From Parcubacteria group bacterium LiPW_15 (GTDB lineage: Bacteria; Patescibacteriota; Minisyncoccia; UBA6257; 2-01-FULL-56-20), in assembly GCA_007375645.1 (NCBI GenBank), contig VMER01000003.1, forward strand, positions 81,553 through 145,552: DNA of 64,000 bases, read 5' to 3'. Positions 27,193-57,948 of this stretch are shown here, in pieces. The notes below the pieces were generated by a model that worked only from the letters and a program-made list of their open reading frames with translations, made no database searches and was not told the DNA's origin. Position numbers and translations under genes: made by a program. Numbering within the stretch: position 1 is the first letter of the stretch; each line of letters opens with the position of its first letter.

Positions 27193-28396
27193 ATTTTTTT
27201 ATCTCTTTAATTAATTTTAATATGTCCGGCTTCTTCGTGTCTCTGCCGAAGCTGATCCGCAAACTTCCCCTCGCGCGCTCCTCCGAGTAGCCCAGGGCGA
27301 GAATGACATGCGACGGCTCCGCGCTCCGGCTTCTACAGGCGGAACCCGCGGAAACTGCAAAACCGGCCAAATCCAGGCGGGTTAATAGTTCCTCCGCTCG
27401 GCGGCCCGGAAGATTTATATTGGCAACGTGAGGCAGCGTTTGTTTTTTGTTCGCCGTCCCATTTATAGATACGTTCGGAATCGCCTTTTTGGTTTCGCCG
27501 AGGAAATATGCCTTTAATCCCTCGACTCTTTCGGCTTCTTTGGCCCTCATTCCGGTAGTTATCTTCACCGCCTCCCCGAATCCAACGATGGCCGCAACGT
27601 TTTCCGTGCCCGAACGAAGTCCAAATTCCTGAGCGCCCCCGGAAATGATGGGCTCCAGACCGCTCCTCTCTTTTATATACAGAACGCCTGCGCCCTTAGG
27701 CCCGTATATTTTCTGCGAGGAAAGGGTCATAAGATCGATTCCAAGCCCACTCACATTACAGTCTATATATTGAAAAGCTTGGGCGGCATCGGTGTGAAAC
27801 AAGGGATAGAATGTAGAACCTGAAGTATAGAATTTAGAATTCTTTTTGAATTCGGAGATTATTTCGGCGAATTTAGCGACGGGCTGAATGGTGCCGATTT
27901 CGTTATTGCCGAGCATCACGGAAACCACCGCGGTCCTCTCGTCCAATTTCTCGCGCAAGATCTCTTCACGCACAAATCCGTTTTTATCTACCGGCAAACA
28001 AACGACTTCCGCTCCCTCGCCAAGAAGTGCGCGGGCGGACTCCAAAACAGACTCGTGCTCTATGGCTGAGACAATTATTTTCGGTTTTCCTTTTATTCCG
28101 TTCTTTTTAAAATATTTTTTGGCCCCTAGAAACGCGCCTTTGATCGCCAGGTTGTTCGCCTCTGTCGCGGAACCGGTAAAAATTATCTGGCGAAAATCCG
28201 CACCAAGTTCCCGCGCGATAATATCCCTCGCCTTATCTACTGCGGTTATCGCTTCCTGGCCGAAGGAATGAAGGCTCCCGGCATTGCCGAATTTTTCGGA
28301 AAAATACGGCAACATCGCCCCCAGAACTTTTTTGTCCACCGGAGCGGAGGCCGCGTAATCGAAATAATAACGTTTCATATCTACTTTATATGCCAT
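27176..28396 (-). CDS. cysteine desulfurase (class-V aminotransferase, IscS/NifS-like)
   Basis: PLP-fold motifs, a SSHK-like region, and a C-terminal active-site Cys region (SAGSACRS). 406 aa. Confidence 0.8.
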   Translation of the reverse strand: MAYKVDMKRYYFDYAASAPVDKKVLGAMLPYFSEKFGNAGSLHSFGQEAITAVDKARDIIARELGADFRQIIFTGSATEANNLAIKGAFLGAKKYFKKNGIKGKPKIIVSAIEHESVLESARALLGEGAEVVCLPVDKNGFVREEILREKLDERTAVVSVMLGNNEIGTIQPVAKFAEIISEFKKNSKFYTSGSTFYPLFHTDAAQAFQYIDCNVSGLGIDLMTLSSQKIYGPKGAGVLYIKERSGLEPIISGGAQEFGLRSGTENVAAIVGFGEAVKITTGMRAKEAERVEGLKAYFLGETKKAIPNVSINGTANKKQTLPHVANINLPGRRAEELLTRLDLAGFAVSAGSACRSRSAEPSHVILALGYSEERARGSLRISFGRDTKKPDILKLIKEIKKYERKN

Positions 28397-28502
28397 AAGC
28401 CGACAAAAATCTACACGAGGGCTTCTCTGGGCAAAAAGTCATCCAAAAAAACCACTCACCCACCTGCTTATTTATCCCTGCGCATTTTTCCGCCCTCCAC
28501 AC

Positions 28503-28532
28503 ATTAACTGCTTTGATATATCAAAGCAGTTA
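28503..28532. promoter_or_regulatory. 30-bp perfect palindrome TTAACTGCTTTGATA|TATCAAAGCAGTTAA at the 3' end of the TrpR-like gene
   Basis: Direct inspection; it shares the 22-bp core CTGCTTTGATATATCAAAGCAG with 28956-28995. Confidence 0.6.
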
Positions 28533-28946
28533 ATCAAACATCCAGATCCTGCCATATTTTGTCTTTTTGTAATGCCCGCTCCTCCTTGGCCTATTACCGG
28601 CTCCTGAGACATTTTTCTCCGCGCCGGTAACCTTCCGCTCTTGGTTCCCGAGATAGCTTTCGTAGGTTTTGCCATCCAACACTCTTTTGATACGGCTGAC
28701 TGTTTGGGAGGAAACCCAAAACTTTTTGCCTATATCCCGATAGCTATTCCCGGAAACAACAGACTCCAGCACGGCTACCCGCAACACGAGGTCATGCCGC
28801 TCTTTATCGGTCACAAACAATCGCAGAAGATCGGGGCGAGCAGAAATCATTTTCCAGCAGACAATTTCCCACTCCTTTCGCGAAGAAAAATCTTCCGGAT
28901 TCGGCAAATTGATTTTTCCGGCGCGCTGATTTCTTGTTCCTCCCAT
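28530..28946 (-). CDS. TrpR-like DNA-binding protein (YerC/YecD family)
   Basis: ERHDLVLRVAVLESVVSGNSYRDIGKKFWVSSQTVSRIKRVL matches the TrpR/YerC helix-turn-helix region. Confidence 0.6.
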   Translation of the reverse strand: MGGTRNQRAGKINLPNPEDFSSRKEWEIVCWKMISARPDLLRLFVTDKERHDLVLRVAVLESVVSGNSYRDIGKKFWVSSQTVSRIKRVLDGKTYESYLGNQERKVTGAEKNVSGAGNRPRRSGHYKKTKYGRIWMFD

Positions 28947-28955
28947 GCACTAATC

Positions 28956-28995
28956 ATACCACCACTGCTTTGATATATCAAAGCAGTGGTGGTAT
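28956..28995. promoter_or_regulatory. 40-bp perfect palindrome ATACCACCACTGCTTTGATA|TATCAAAGCAGTGGTGGTAT, 10 bp upstream of the TrpR-like start
   Basis: Direct inspection; the position implies an autoregulatory operator overlapping the promoter and ribosome-binding site. Confidence 0.6.
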
Positions 28996-29115
28996 GCGGA
29001 TTCAAATGTAATGGGCAGAATACAATGTGCGGGGGGGGTACATCGTGCAGAATGCACAGAATACGCGCGGAATGCACGGCAAAAAAACAGCAAAAAACAA
29101 TGATGAGGGCGGGGG

Positions 29116-29694
29116 TTAAAAAAGCGGCGCGGTAACCGTCTTGGGCGCAAAGCGAACCTTGTTAACTTCGCCGGTTTTCTTGTTTGGCACCAAGAGCTCC
29201 TTTTCTTTTAAGTAGAGATCATAAAGCTGTTTGGTCAATTCCACGTCCTTCAAACAATATTTTTTTAGCTCATCGATCTTTCCCTCCTCATACAGTCCGA
29301 TAGCTTCGGAACCGTGGCCGGTCTTTCCGACTCCCAGGTTCGCTTCGGCGAGCCGCGAAAGACTGATCCTCTCACCGGTGGCCATTTCTATCTCGTGCAA
29401 CAGATCCACCCGTTCTTTCTGCCAAAGGTCCAGTCCCTCCTGGTTAAGCTTTTGGAAATAAAGATTTAGGACCGGAGTGTCGTAGCGGTTGGAAGAGAAC
29501 CCGACAATACGCGCGCTTTTTTTGAAAAGTTCGGCGAGTTTGTCCATCTCGGTTTCTTCATAGCAGTAATATTTGTCCTCCAAATAGGAATAAACTCCGA
29601 CCACGGAAATTTTTAAGGCGCCGTAATTATCCCAGCCCACGCCCGGGGAGGTAAAAAAATTCTGGGTTTCTATGTCGAAAACAAGAGTATCCAT
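29116..29694 (-). CDS. RNase H-like / DnaQ-like 3'-5' exonuclease domain protein
   Basis: VFDIETQNF (Exo I-like DxE), YDTPVLN, then a C-terminal acidic/Lys-rich region. Confidence 0.5.
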   Translation of the reverse strand: MDTLVFDIETQNFFTSPGVGWDNYGALKISVVGVYSYLEDKYYCYEETEMDKLAELFKKSARIVGFSSNRYDTPVLNLYFQKLNQEGLDLWQKERVDLLHEIEMATGERISLSRLAEANLGVGKTGHGSEAIGLYEEGKIDELKKYCLKDVELTKQLYDLYLKEKELLVPNKKTGEVNKVRFAPKTVTAPLF

Positions 29695-30593: not shown

Positions 30594-31487
30594 TCATCTT
30601 TTTATTGAATACCTTACCTCGCGCAACAGATCGCCTAATTCCTTTTTTGTTTTTGCCTCCGCATTGAATCTCAAGAGCGATTCGGTATTCGAGGGGCGGA
30701 CGTTGAACCAGAAGTCTTTTGCCTCCACGCTTAATCCATCCAAGGTCGAAACCTTCCCGCGCCTCATATAGATCTTCTTTATTTTGGCGATAATTTTGCC
30801 GGCATCTTTGACTTTGAAATTCAGTTCGCCCGAAGAATAGTGCTTGGGCAGGGAATCCAGCCACCCGGAAAGTTTCTGCCCCCTCTTTTTGAGGGCGGAA
30901 ACACAAGAAGCGAATTCGATCAGGGCCCGAAGCGCGGAATCGTAATGAGCTCTCCGCTTGCCGAAGGAAAACTCGAAATAATAGTGGCCGGATGGTTCCG
31001 CCGCAAACTTTGCGTGAGCCACCCGCATCTTCTGTTTTATAAAATAGTGGCCAACGGGACTCCATCGGATATTTTTCGGACTCAACGCTTTCCGCCAAGT
31101 CCAGCCGGAAGCCGGGGTTACAACAAAGGGCGGTTTGAAGTTCCTTGAGATAAGAAGCGCCGCCGCATCCGGACTTACGCTCCGCCCCAGATCATCCACG
31201 AAAAAGATCCTGTCCCCATCCCCATCAAATACTGCTCCGAAATCCGCACCCAACTTTTTAACGGCGCGGGAAAGTTCTCTTTCCGAATGCGCCCCCATCG
31301 GATCCGGACCATGCGCCGGAAAATTGCCGTCGGGAATGCCATTCAGGATCTTCAGCTTAAGGCGCGTTCCGCCTAAAACTTTTAGGATCGGACCGGCGCT
31401 TCCGTCGGAGGCATCGGCGACCGCGAAAACAGTCTTCGTCGGACGAAAGAATTTTAAAAGGTACGCGGCGTAATCGCGATAGGTCAT
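30594..31487 (-). CDS. phosphoglucomutase/phosphomannomutase family, C-terminal part (domains II-IV)
   Basis: ..VFAVADASDGSAGP..GIPDGNFPAHGPDP..FDGDGDRIFFVDDLG.. Its start overlaps the upstream ORF's stop (ATGA) at an A6 run. Confidence 0.7.
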   Translation of the reverse strand: MTYRDYAAYLLKFFRPTKTVFAVADASDGSAGPILKVLGGTRLKLKILNGIPDGNFPAHGPDPMGAHSERELSRAVKKLGADFGAVFDGDGDRIFFVDDLGRSVSPDAAALLISRNFKPPFVVTPASGWTWRKALSPKNIRWSPVGHYFIKQKMRVAHAKFAAEPSGHYYFEFSFGKRRAHYDSALRALIEFASCVSALKKRGQKLSGWLDSLPKHYSSGELNFKVKDAGKIIAKIKKIYMRRGKVSTLDGLSVEAKDFWFNVRPSNTESLLRFNAEAKTKKELGDLLREVRYSIKR

Positions 31488-31888
31488 TTTTTAGCGGCTC
31501 TTTTCTGAACCATTTTCCAAATATCTTTCCCGCTTATGGGTTCGGCATTCGCGCCGACCGCTTTAATGCCGTTGTATTCCTTGGGGTTGTGCGAGGCGGT
31601 CACCATCACACCGCCTTTGGCGCCCACCCGATTGACCAGAAAATACAGAAGCGGGGTGGTTATAAGGCCAACCTTGATAAGCGTTATCTTGGAATCGTTT
31701 TTATCCAATCCGCGGATGACGGCCCGGTAGAGTTTGGGTGAGCTTTTGCGCGCGTCATGGCCCACAACTATTTCTCCGGAACGGAAATGCGCGGCCAAAA
31801 CTCCGGAAATTATCTCCGCGTTTTTTTCATTTATCTCTTTGGGATATTTCCCCCGAACGTCGTAGGACTTAAAAATAGATTTATCCAC
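31484..31888 (-). CDS. phosphoglucomutase/phosphomannomutase family, N-terminal domain I with the active-site Ser
   Basis: GGVMVTASHNP phosphoserine loop. Adding one A at the A6 run (31487-31492) fuses it in frame with 30594..31487 to give an about 432-aa protein. Confidence 0.7.
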   Translation of the reverse strand: MDKSIFKSYDVRGKYPKEINEKNAEIISGVLAAHFRSGEIVVGHDARKSSPKLYRAVIRGLDKNDSKITLIKVGLITTPLLYFLVNRVGAKGGVMVTASHNPKEYNGIKAVGANAEPISGKDIWKMVQKRAAKK

Positions 31889-31982: not shown

Positions 31983-32546
31983 TTACGCCTCCTCGTCCAC
32001 GATCGACGACGACTCCGCCGGCCCCTCGGGGTCCTCGGGAACCTCGACGGCCTCGGGGACGTCGGGGGTCTCGGGAGGGCCAGAGAAGAGCGCGACGAGT
32101 CCGTGGAGCTCCGCGATCTCGCGCTTGAACTTGCCGATGGACTCGTACTCCGTGGCGACCTTCGCCTTGAGCCACTCGATGCTGGCGCTGGCCTCCTTGA
32201 TCCGCTCCTCGCTCCTCCGGTGATACTCGAAGAGATTAGTGATCCTCCCGTCCACGTCCTCGGCCACCACGTTCTGGAATCCGAGGACACCCACGACGAC
32301 CCCCAAGACGGTGCTCGCGCCGTCCGCGTTCTTCACGAACTTGGCAGCGGCGAACGCCTCCCGGAGGCCGAAGCGCTTCAGGTTGTTCGCGTAGGCGATG
32401 CCCTCCGCGAACTTCACGTCGGCCAGCTTGATCTTCTCGTCCAGCGTCTTCTGGTTGAAGGCTTCCTTCTGGAACTTCAGCAGCAGGCCGGTGGCAAAGA
32501 GCATGACGGCGACGGTGAGAAGGACGGAAATGACGATGGGAAACAT
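31983..32546 (-). CDS. hypothetical membrane-anchored protein (weakly LemA-like) in an about 65 % GC patch
   Basis: N-terminal TM segment and an acidic C-terminal tail. Terminator at 31925-31958 on the minus strand. The many overlapping ORFs in other frames are judged spurious. Confidence 0.4.
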   Translation of the reverse strand: MFPIVISVLLTVAVMLFATGLLLKFQKEAFNQKTLDEKIKLADVKFAEGIAYANNLKRFGLREAFAAAKFVKNADGASTVLGVVVGVLGFQNVVAEDVDGRITNLFEYHRRSEERIKEASASIEWLKAKVATEYESIGKFKREIAELHGLVALFSGPPETPDVPEAVEVPEDPEGPAESSSIVDEEA

Positions 32547-41102: not shown

Positions 41103-41122
41103 CCTGCCTGCCGGCAGGCAGG
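41103..41122. repeat. palindromic repeat copy A: CCTGCCTGCC|GGCAGGCAGG, followed 3 nt later by GGCGAAGCG
   Basis: Direct inspection; the same 20-bp palindrome occurs at 45298-45317 and a degenerate copy at 57682-57711. Confidence 0.6.
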
Positions 41123-45150: not shown

Positions 45151-45297
45151 AATATCCCACCTTGTTGTTCAATTTATAATTTACCACAGAAATGCCCGAA
45201 GGGTGGGAGGGTAAATCTGCCAACTTGCCCCGTCAAAGCGAAGCTTATTCGGGGTTTCGCCACCCCAGCACTTTGAACGGGATAAATTTGCCATTTC

Positions 45298-45317
45298 CCT
45301 GCCTGCCGGCAGGCAGG
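45298..45317. repeat. palindromic repeat copy B: CCTGCCTGCC|GGCAGGCAGG, followed 35 nt later by GGCGAAGCG
   Basis: Direct inspection; in the same orientation as copy A. Confidence 0.6.
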
Positions 45318-45533
45318 GCCACCTGCTCGCCTCGCTATGGCTTCGGCGAAGCGGGCTCACTTTGACCATTCTATCCCAAAAAAAGCGATAACAAAATCTG
45401 CCGACACGGAAAATTGACTTCTGCCGTAAATTCGATATATTACAGACAGCAACCTGCGCGAAAGGAGGCGCGCGTCAAAACCGACCCAAGCCCCGCCGAA
45501 CAACGCTCAAAAACCCGAATGGGAGAAACGACC

Positions 45534-57357: not shown

Positions 57358-57487
57358 TTGTTTTTGATTTTACCTTTTTTTAATAATGACCCTCGTGAGC
57401 ACTTGAAGTCAAGGAAAATAGATCTGCTGTTTTTGGTTTTAGGGTGCCCCGTAAAATCGCGTGGCGATCACGGGGCTGTCACGTGAT

Positions 57488-57512: not shown

Positions 57513-57521
57513 TATTTTACG

Positions 57522-57575
57522 TGGTGCCGGGCCCCAGAGTCGAACTGGGCACGCCTGCCTCTTCCAAAGGCAAAT
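57522..57575 (-). pseudogene. tRNA 3'-half fragment (anticodon-arm-like region, T-arm, acceptor 3' strand and CCA) with no matching 5' half
   Basis: The reverse complement ..TGCCT-TTGGAAG-AGGCA-GGCGTG-CCCAG-TTCGACT-CTGGG-GCCCGGC-A-CCA has a perfect T-arm plus acceptor plus CCA, but no complementary GCCGGGC 5' strand or D-arm is found within 100 nt. Confidence 0.35.
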
Positions 57576-57681
57576 TGGACTATATCACCTCCCTTGTCAG
57601 CGCTCATGCGGACAGTCGGGAGTCGGGCGCTTCGCCTAAATCATTTCTGATCGGCTACTCCTTTAAAGGATAGTCTCTACA

Positions 57682-57711
57682 CCTGCCTACGCTTTCGCTC
57701 CGGCAGGCAGG
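57682..57711. repeat. degenerate copy C of the CCTGCC..GGCAGGCAGG palindromic repeat (left arm interrupted), with an inverted GGCGAAGCGCC 60 nt away
   Basis: Direct inspection. Confidence 0.45.
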
Positions 57712-57948
57712 CCTTCCACCTATACAAATGGTTAGCTTGCTTGCAATCCGTAGCTTTAGCGAAGGATTGGCTCGGGATTGTTTGCCTTGCGGCAAGTTTT
57801 CCCCGAATTCACCCGATTTTTCAATCCGCATTTCTGCGGAAAGCCCCAAAGATTATTTAGGGCAGCGCTCTACCGATGAGCTAGCCCGGCAGCTAATTGC
57901 TCCCACACAGGATAACAAAGCTGCTTTTACATTTCAACAACAAATAAC

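Follow-up and report, generated by a model that had tools for sequence, protein, structure and literature searches.

A TrpR-fold protein gene bracketed by self-complementary sites in Parcubacteria: a probable operator pair and its dispersed relatives

Why should a small regulatory gene lie between two perfect palindromes, one just ahead of its start codon and the other across its stop codon? This arrangement occurs in a 64-kb stretch of DNA (the window) from Parcubacteria group bacterium LiPW_15, an ultra-small groundwater bacterium and metagenome-assembled member of the Candidate Phyla Radiation (CPR), where the minus strand at 28530..28946 encodes a 138-aa TrpR-like helix-turn-helix protein that is annotated as hypothetical. 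Transcriptional control in the CPR is almost unknown, and these bacteria are not yet growable alone. Here we present a comparative analysis from which the palindromes emerge as probable cognate sites of the enclosed TrpR-fold protein: the upstream palindrome, O1, would act as an autoregulatory operator and the downstream one, O2, as a second conserved 3′ site. Comparison across related genomes strongly supports such an operator pair. The analysis supplies a regulator family, a motif predicted from 20 independent loci and a promoter architecture with probable leaderless transcripts. Regulator, motif and promoter are all open to testing in vitro or in a heterologous host, with no need to culture the bacterium.

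O1 (28955-28996; CATACCACCACTGCTTTGATATATCAAAGCAGTGGTGGTATG) is a perfect palindrome of 42 bp and O2 (28503-28534; ATTAACTGCTTTGATATATCAAAGCAGTTAAT) one of 32 bp, and neither has a strand. They have in common a 24-bp stretch, ACTGCTTTGATATATCAAAGCAGT (28964-28987 in O1, 28507-28530 in O2), which contains the 18-bp family core GCTTTGATATATCAAAGC (28967-28984 and 28510-28527). The edge of O1 lies 8 nt from the ATG at 28946 and its centre at about -29.5 relative to that codon. O2 contains the stop codon (28530-28532) and is centred 122 bp upstream of the start of the next gene (28396). A gap of 420 bp separates the two palindromes, and the distance from centre to centre is 457 bp. The first-pass annotation of this DNA was right about the existence, perfection, shared core and placement of the palindromes, and its measurements need correction: it gave slightly short lengths (40 and 30 bp), a core of 22 bp, a spacing of 424 bp and a distance of 10 bp to the start codon. 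Its 22-mer, allowed up to three mismatches, matches nothing but O1 and O2 in the 64 kb and nothing at all in 100 shuffles of the window, and the general motif GCTWTG-N6-CAWAGC is likewise confined to these two places in the window. On their outer sides O1 and O2 are flanked by different sequences. A likeness to the trp operator of E. coli, also proposed earlier, does not survive comparison: of the two sites only O2 has the TTAAC flank, which is kept in none of the relatives, and the conserved half-site is GCTWTG rather than GNACT.

A word-indexed homology search with the single protein returned only itself, and the family was recovered by an exhaustive HMMER search, which yielded 120 representative clusters at E<=1e-3, almost all of 125-155 aa. 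Conservation spans residues about 12-136, and all members with a named source are Patescibacteria, Brennerbacteria and Liptonbacteria among them. Thirteen family proteins on contigs of sufficient length were looked up, giving, with the window, thirteen distinct loci. In total we compared 20 distinct loci (designated by L and a number), made up of ten main-family loci reached through the protein alone, three divergent loci reached through the protein and seven from a DNA-only scan; gene calls in the fetched loci are crude, being the longest open reading frames (ORFs). The first-pass annotation had proposed a check of the conservation of the palindromes, and the outcome is uniform: in 20 of 20 loci a family palindrome stands both before the start and after the stop of the gene, with a core that varies among loci (the contig end truncates the downstream copy of L137). 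In the thirteen loci reached through the protein these palindromes are perfect. The second site falls 0-100 bp after the stop codon at every family locus. From these sites we derive the consensus RSY-GCTWTG-N6-CAWAGC-RSY, in which the RSY flanks are degenerate. Because the bracketing is found at all 20 family loci, we take the palindromes to be, in all probability, the protein's own sites.

The individual loci illustrate how the core changes from locus to locus. In the syntenic relative L005, which has aminotransferase, HtrA and ClpB genes downstream, the upstream site is of the GCTATGCTATAGCATAGC type, a sequence with four copies in the whole locus, and the downstream site has the same core. 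L007 carries GCTATGATGCATCATAGC upstream and a 36-bp version 4 nt past the stop; L009 carries ACTATGCTATAGCATAGT upstream and AAGCGCTATGCTATAGCATAGCGCTT downstream; L010 carries CGCTATGCTATAGCATAGCG upstream and a 34-bp version downstream. Upstream and downstream cores are the same in L131 (GCTATGACATGTCATAGC; 34 bp upstream, 24 bp downstream), L132 (GCTATGCTATAGCATAGC), L133 (ACTATGACATGTCATAGT; 38 and 24 bp) and L135 (GCTATGATATATCATAGC). The central hexamer is identical between both sites of a locus in all nine main-family loci anchored by the protein. Centre-to-centre distances are 457, 466, 477, 462, 463, 510, 475, 533 and 555 bp.

The association with the gene is quantitatively tight. 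Across nine protein-anchored loci, the window included, the gene flanks hold 20 sites in a total of 3.5 kb, compared with 1 in 99.6 kb elsewhere, an enrichment of about 570-fold. When strict limits are set on distance, 11 of 15 family genes count as bracketed and just 3 of 630 other ORFs do, all three being spurious ORFs inside non-coding arrays of sites. Every pair of sites 450-610 bp apart encloses a family gene, and pairs spaced by 100-230 bp belong to non-coding arrays. Apart from family genes, just two coding ORFs are bracketed, one of 51 aa in L002 and one of 89 aa in L079. Together with an upstream site that covers the gene's own promoter (see below), this bracketing and enrichment strongly support the proposal that the palindromes are an operator pair of the enclosed regulator. 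L002, a Candidatus Zambryskibacteria metagenome-assembled genome, was found by scanning a genome collection with a 20-mer from the window, a scan that also returned L003 and L004, probable chance matches in unrelated bacteria. The two family palindromes of L002 (6579-6827) lie 222 bp apart around the 51-aa ORF, which is Cys-rich, does not belong to the family and has no significant Pfam match; an extended -10 element follows the first palindrome.

Does the protein itself read the sites, or does some other factor bind them, with the TrpR-like gene merely as its most constant target? The existence of dispersed sites far from any family gene, described below, would suit a separate factor. The recognition helix points the other way. 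Main-family members have SPQTIS in this helix and half-sites GCTATG or GCTTTG. Three divergent members (L134, L136 and L137), which are among the bracketed loci, are without the RTKYG tail of the main family, and their recognition helix reads SPGTIS or SPSTIS instead. Their half-sites are GCTACC, GCTTCC and GCTATC in L134, GCTACT in L136 and GCTACC in L137, so that GCTA stays constant in the divergent forms (GCTAYC, GCTACT or GCTACC) and positions 5-6 change along with the Gln. Site specificity thus tracks the recognition helix in these three loci, as direct readout by the protein predicts; with three loci this is suggestive rather than proof. A separate factor is also hard to reconcile with a site geometry that agrees with TrpR-family motifs, with the enrichment at the TrpR-like gene, and with gene contexts that vary between distant lineages and offer no other conserved neighbour. 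We therefore give the separate factor little credence.

What kind of protein would bind in this way? The 138-aa protein matches the Pfam family Trp_repressor (PF01371) over residues 37-93 with 33.1 bits, above the cut-off of 27; its only other Pfam match is a weak one to HTH_28, and PF01371 matches are also precomputed for relatives. Three blocks are conserved in the family: P-x6-SRKEWE-x2-CW near the N-terminus, SYRxIGxELWLSPQTISxIKK in the helix-turn-helix, and a basic tail whose last part is RTKYGxxYxP. In an AlphaFold2 model (pLDDT 82), six helices precede a C-terminal beta-hairpin. The fold is TrpR-like and otherwise all-helical: the best Foldseek matches in the PDB are E. coli TrpR (6fal, 1tro) and then putative TrpRs (3frw, 3g1c, 3kor), and the top 33 are all TrpR or putative TrpR, with probabilities of 0.92-1.0, weak E values of about 1e-2 and target TM scores of 0.47-0.61. 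TrpR chains are extended and form an intertwined dimer in crystals, and this extended form may be what lowers the scores of a monomer in Foldseek. The earlier call of a TrpR/YerC-like regulator stands as to the Trp_repressor family, and not as to either equivalog, since the protein scores 21.9 bits against the TrpR model TIGR01321 (cut-off 67.25) and 15.9 bits against the YerC/YecD (HisR) model TIGR02531 (cut-off 42.2). Because it combines the Pfam match and a TrpR-like fold with scores far under both cut-offs, the protein represents a new branch of the TrpR family and is orthologous to neither TrpR nor YerC/HisR. The same comparisons suggest that the branch, Patescibacteria-named as far as its sources go, is distinguished by extra N- and C-terminal modules.

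The position of O1 indicates what binding would do. A scan of 28000-29600 for sigma-70-like promoters returned a single site, with 10/12 matches, on the minus strand and overlapping O1. The centre of O1 itself forms the -35-like hexamer TTGATA (28976..28981, minus strand). A spacer of 17 nt separates it from TATGAT, the hexamer (28958-28953) of an extended -10 element, TGGTATGAT (TGgTATGAT; 28953..28961, minus strand), four bases of the hexamer lying within the outer arm of O1. At the level of sequence, then, O1 spans the -35 and the spacer and overlaps the regulator's own core promoter, as autoregulation calls for. A repressor centred near -29.5 is in a position expected to block RNA polymerase. 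Because O1 covers the -35 and spacer of the gene's extended -10 promoter, autorepression is the best reading of the upstream site. Only six nt separate the -10 hexamer from the ATG, which implies a leaderless mRNA that would start at or beside the ATG at 28946; no Shine-Dalgarno sequence precedes this ATG.

The relatives keep much of this architecture. In 7 of 12 tabulated loci, 19-20 nt separate the end of the upstream core from the ORF-called start, and the distance is likewise 19 nt in L118/L091 once the start there is corrected to the seventh codon. In most relatives a -10-like hexamer (TATGAT, TATAAT, TATACT, TATGCT or TATGGT) follows the upstream core at 1-13 nt. The layout of a -10 hexamer, six nt and an ATG recurs in L010, L066 and L118, again with the seventh codon of L118 as start.

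The mechanism that we favour follows from this architecture. The gene product would be a dimeric DNA-binding protein of TrpR fold from the Patescibacteria-named branch. A dimer bound at O1, centred near -29.5, would exclude RNA polymerase, and the protein would thereby limit its own synthesis by negative autoregulation. For O2 two roles may be considered. It could cooperate with O1 by bridging or looping across 457 bp, which is possible. It could also act as a bound roadblock, or as a hairpin ending the transcript, and so insulate the cysteine-desulfurase-like and HtrA genes that lie beyond. Most likely O2 does one or both of these things. The lambda repressor CI offers a familiar layout: its operators OR and OL lie either side of cI-rex, 2.4 kb apart, cooperate by looping and both control outward lytic promoters. 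As here, a promoter operator is followed by the repressor gene and a second operator downstream. The differences are that no promoter is predicted at O2, that the distance is about 460 bp, that the fold is unrelated and that there is no phage context.

Among known regulators, the autoregulated repressors TrpR and HisR come closest. With E. coli TrpR the protein shares PF01371 and the predicted fold, as well as small size, a helix-turn-helix and a palindromic operator over its own promoter. Arg56, invariant in the family, aligns with an Arg of TrpR helix C. Unlike TrpR, the protein is about 30 residues longer, with the conserved SRKEWE-x2-CW N-terminus and a basic tail that ends in the RTKYG beta-hairpin. 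Its half-site is GCTWTG with a 6-bp spacer, whereas that of TrpR is GNACT (GNACT/CTAG-type); no trp genes lie nearby, and the post-stop site is universal in the family. HisR (B. subtilis YerC) is a TrpR-family histidine repressor for which PMC9413887 gives the motif cacTTTA-N6-TAAAgtg and reports autoregulation in about half of HisR genomes. TrpR and HisR alike are autoregulated repressors with palindromic operators of 18-20 bp. The HisR geometry of half-site, 6-bp spacer and half-site is that of GCTTTG-N6-CAAAGC here. However, HisR has a coherent metabolic regulon, whereas the dispersed sites of the present family flank unrelated genes, and the passages of PMC9413887 that were consulted describe no 3′ site for hisR, whereas each family locus here has one.

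Could the palindromes instead be RNA hairpins, acting as terminators, stabilisers or translational controls and unrelated to DNA binding by the encoded protein? O1 forms a 19-bp stem and O2 a 14-bp stem, both very stable hairpins, and the folding z-scores of the surrounding regions are -5.5 and -3.4. O2 would sit in the 3′ end of the mRNA, the central 4 nt tolerate variation as a loop would, and compensated, transition-type changes in the arms resemble stem evolution. But no intrinsic terminator was called at O1 or O2, and the sequence after O2, GTGTGGAGGGCGG, holds no U-tract; the canonical terminators of the window look different, with a stem between an A-run and a T-run. The predicted -10 is downstream of O1 and overlaps with it, which would leave O1 outside the mRNA from that promoter. 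Nor would a generic terminator bracket one gene family at 20 of 20 loci, or change its half-site along with a recognition helix. Searching 28300-29200 against Rfam 15 gave no match at the gathering score. Permissive matches were to microRNA hairpin models (22-28 bits against cut-offs of 56-100) and were rejected as false positives caused by hairpin shape. We consider an RNA role independent of the protein very unlikely.

The first-pass annotation had offered as its alternative a tiny mobile unit with the palindromes as terminal inverted repeats. Such a cassette, with the palindromes serving as terminal repeats or as recombination sites for moving the regulator gene, would account for the central hexamer shared within each of the nine loci, much as in a crossover site, and for genomic contexts that vary between distant lineages. 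Within sub-lineages, however, the surroundings are stable: synteny with the downstream neighbours is kept in a relative only 47% identical, and holds between the window and L005, L009 and L132, and L131 and L135. The protein consists of a helix-turn-helix and a C-terminal beta-hairpin in 138 aa and has no catalytic domain, and no recombinase is a constant neighbour. The gene has ordinary base composition and GC content and no second copy in the 64 kb, where the sites too are limited to the one pair. No target-site duplication is visible in the sequence, and collections of phages, plasmids and viral contigs matched neither the motif nor the protein. The hallmarks of elements such as miniature inverted-repeat transposable elements (MITEs) or insertion sequences, namely terminal inverted repeats with target duplication, multiple copies and a transposase, are not seen here, and we regard a mobile cassette as extremely improbable.

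Does the motif stop at its own gene? We scanned metagenome contigs with the exact 18-mer GCTATGCTATAGCATAGC and found it in at least 120 stretches, many on contigs with groundwater-project names; this DNA-anchored set is biased to one core sequence and includes related contigs. A local HMM search placed a family gene in about 12 of the stretches listed, and wherever present it is bracketed. Most sites among the matches listed are singletons whose fetched loci lack a family gene. They adjoin genes for GatB, ATP synthase, TruD, a penicillin-binding protein, IF-2 and ribosomal protein L21. Among 113 flanking ORFs scanned with Pfam, no family or function recurred, and a coherent regulon was rejected on this ground. 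A -10 element at +2 follows the dispersed sites in only about 6% of flanks, so most of them are not promoters. Between genes, sites occupy convergent and divergent intervals in a ratio of 23:5 against a background of 86:82, and once arrays are removed and the set is strictly de-duplicated, it falls to 12:4 (p=0.08). The bias of dispersed sites to 3′ ends is for that reason a trend only.

Some of the sites occur in groups. Abutting doublets exist, such as GCTATGACGCGTCATAGC followed directly by GCTATGCTATAGCATAGC. Abutting doublets whose two palindromes lie exactly 18 bp apart and differ in central hexamer (ACGCGT or ACATGT beside CTATAG) are found in L011 (5611-5646), L043 (1387-1422), L067 (1264-1299), L080 (5382-5417) and others; this spacing would place two dimers side by side. 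L020 (1-2233) has 16 sites in 2.2 kb, in an array that abuts the 3′ end of a family gene, with units of 88-126 bp and spacers that are C-rich and G-poor. Arrays of 4-6 sites occur in L023, L030, L051, L064, L072 and L075. A second conserved hairpin motif, CCCCGTAAAATCGCTACGCGATCACGGGG, is interleaved with the arrays in several loci. This motif, CCCCGTAAAATCGC-N-GCGATCACGGGG, occurs 26 times in 13 metagenome loci (L016, L020, L023, L036, L051, L064, L071, L083, L107, L117, L119, L124 and L126), alternating with the GCTATG..CATAGC palindromes in mosaic arrays; it is present once in the window, at 57453-57474 on the plus strand, just after a tRNA terminator.

Several observations weigh against an operator pair as the whole explanation. 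In related genomes the motif stands beside unrelated housekeeping genes, between convergent genes and in non-coding arrays, and these dispersed copies mean that the sites are not solely autoregulatory operators. At O2 there is no predicted promoter, no -10 element or other promoter-like site, and no U-tract. No common helical phase is apparent, by eye rather than by formal computation, among centre-to-centre distances of 457-555 bp. The start codon could be a TTG at codon 14 rather than the ATG. Perfect symmetry over 42 and 32 bp exceeds the 18-24-bp footprint of a dimer. Finally, each site is kept self-complementary individually, which a simple protein-DNA model does not predict.

This last property is seen in the sites with consensus arms from 120 related loci, none of which (0 of 195) is asymmetric at the W position. 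In 24 sites the same change is present on both arms (ACTATG..CATAGT, GTTATG..CATAAC or GCTGTG..CACAGC), and in 19 sites a change, nearly always a transition, affects one arm only. Symmetric variants coexist with consensus sites in single genomes (L005, L009, L040 and L046), and because they do so they are not lineage-wide changes of specificity. Individual self-complementarity leads us to consider selection for a hairpin or cruciform, or correction of quasi-palindromes by template switching in replication, a known mutational process; either would also fit the perfect symmetry of O1 and O2 over 42 and 32 bp. For the three bases that flank the 18-mer, covariation was rejected, as the positions are degenerate RSY and their complementarity of 0.51-0.61 is the chance value for two-letter positions; extra pairing in the flanks is limited to positions +4 to +6.

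These features invite a broader explanation, in which dispersed self-complementary repeats are primary and the TrpR-like protein is their dedicated binder with a genome-wide structural role. That role might be to terminate transcription or insulate genes in a protein-dependent way, to organise the nucleoid or to act like a centromere, and the copies around the gene of the protein itself would be a by-product or would serve to sense dosage. It would explain why the exact 18-mer occurs in so many stretches when so few of those listed hold a family gene, why arrays are common and reach the size of that in L020, why the neighbours are assorted housekeeping genes, why convergent intervals are favoured in the full count, and why every site is self-complementary on its own, with compensated changes. 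Yet the 64 kb of the window contain no site beyond O1 and O2, the protein-anchored loci show a single site in 99.6 kb away from the gene, the convergent bias weakens on strict de-duplication, and the register of the upstream site with the -10 and the ATG is fixed, as expected of an operator. In this strong form, with the repeats primary, we think the explanation unlikely, and it extends the operator model without excluding it. The first-pass annotation had held that many scattered palindromes would speak against operators; the window has no scattered copies, related genomes in part do, and the result widens the operator-pair reading rather than overturning it. As a tentative extension of the operator pair, doubtful but conceivable, RSY-GCTWTG-N6-CAWAGC-RSY may represent Parcubacteria-wide dispersed self-complementary elements with the TrpR-like protein as their dedicated keeper.

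Two known pairings of repeats with a protein are instructive. Repetitive extragenic palindromes (REPs) are imperfect palindromes dispersed between genes, with hundreds per genome, and the gene for the REP-associated tyrosine transposase (RAYT), an HUH/Y1 transposase-like protein, is flanked by REPs. Dispersed intergenic palindromes, a protein gene flanked by copies and mosaic arrays are all found in the relatives, and the window has the two flanking copies only. Unlike RAYT, the present protein has a TrpR fold and no HUH/Y1 transposase domain, Pfam matching it to Trp_repressor and weakly to HTH_28 only; unlike REPs, the copies here are perfect and seemingly sparse, at 1 per about 100 kb away from the gene in the protein-anchored loci. 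In SopB-sopC of the F plasmid and in ParB-parS, the gene for a helix-turn-helix protein is directly followed by one or more palindromic binding sites, and the 16-site array just behind a family gene in L020 is similar to sopC. In contrast to SopB and ParB, there is no ParA-type ATPase neighbour, the fold is not that of ParB, and the sites also overlap a promoter and occur singly across the chromosome. If the keeper extension is true, a pairing like REP/RAYT or SopB/sopC would be built here on a plain helix-turn-helix protein, and it may provide protein-dependent termination or insulation, or chromosome organisation, in minimal genomes.

By sequence comparison, the post-stop site at every locus, the identical central hexamers within each locus, the strict self-complementarity and the dispersed copies and arrays also appear to be new, and a text search of the literature on the motif or on TrpR-like regulators in CPR bacteria found nothing relevant. 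The universal post-stop site, the strict self-complementarity and the dispersed copies and arrays are unexplained by textbook autoregulation and may point to a genome-wide role for the protein.

Upstream of the regulator gene the first-pass annotation had also noted four GCAGAATRCA motifs and a G8 run. They are present: four SRGAATRCR motifs lie at 29016-29076 on the plus strand, so that 4 of the 9 matches in the window fall inside 61 bp on a single strand, and the G8 run (29031-29038) lies between them, in the 169-bp spacer upstream of the gene. The total of nine over the whole window is at chance level, Tandem Repeats Finder called no repeat at the cluster, and the syntenic relative L005 has none of these motifs. 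The cluster is locally real, and no link to the palindromes and regulator could be made.

The neighbouring genes all lie on the minus strand and encode RNase H-like proteins, a class-V aminotransferase (cysteine-desulfurase-like) and HtrA. No trp or his genes lie near the 138-aa gene, and the family loci contain no his genes.

Elsewhere in the window, a group I intron (Rfam RF00028, 56 bits, 57555-57868) lies within a tRNA-like gene at 57517-57905 on the minus strand. The exons it separates, GCCGGGCTAGCTCATCGGTAGAGCGCTGCCCT and GGCAGGCGTGCCCAGTTCGACTCTGGGGCCCGGCACCA, look like a tRNA-Phe(GAA) whose anticodon loop is interrupted; the gene escapes ARAGORN. Another perfect palindrome, CC(C)TGCCTGCCGGCAGGCAGG(G), occurs at 41103-41122 and 45297-45318, 4.2 kb apart, and may be another repeated site; CCTGCCTGCCGG is present also inside the group I intron. 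The GC content peaks at 0.65 at 32000-32499, against about 0.49 around it, where it coincides with the Pro/Glu/Ser-rich, low-complexity end of an ORF. A phosphoglucomutase-like gene at 30594-31888 on the minus strand is split into domain I (31484-31888) and domains II-IV (30594-31487) with a 4-nt overlap, and an independent assembly in the ENA calls the same split.

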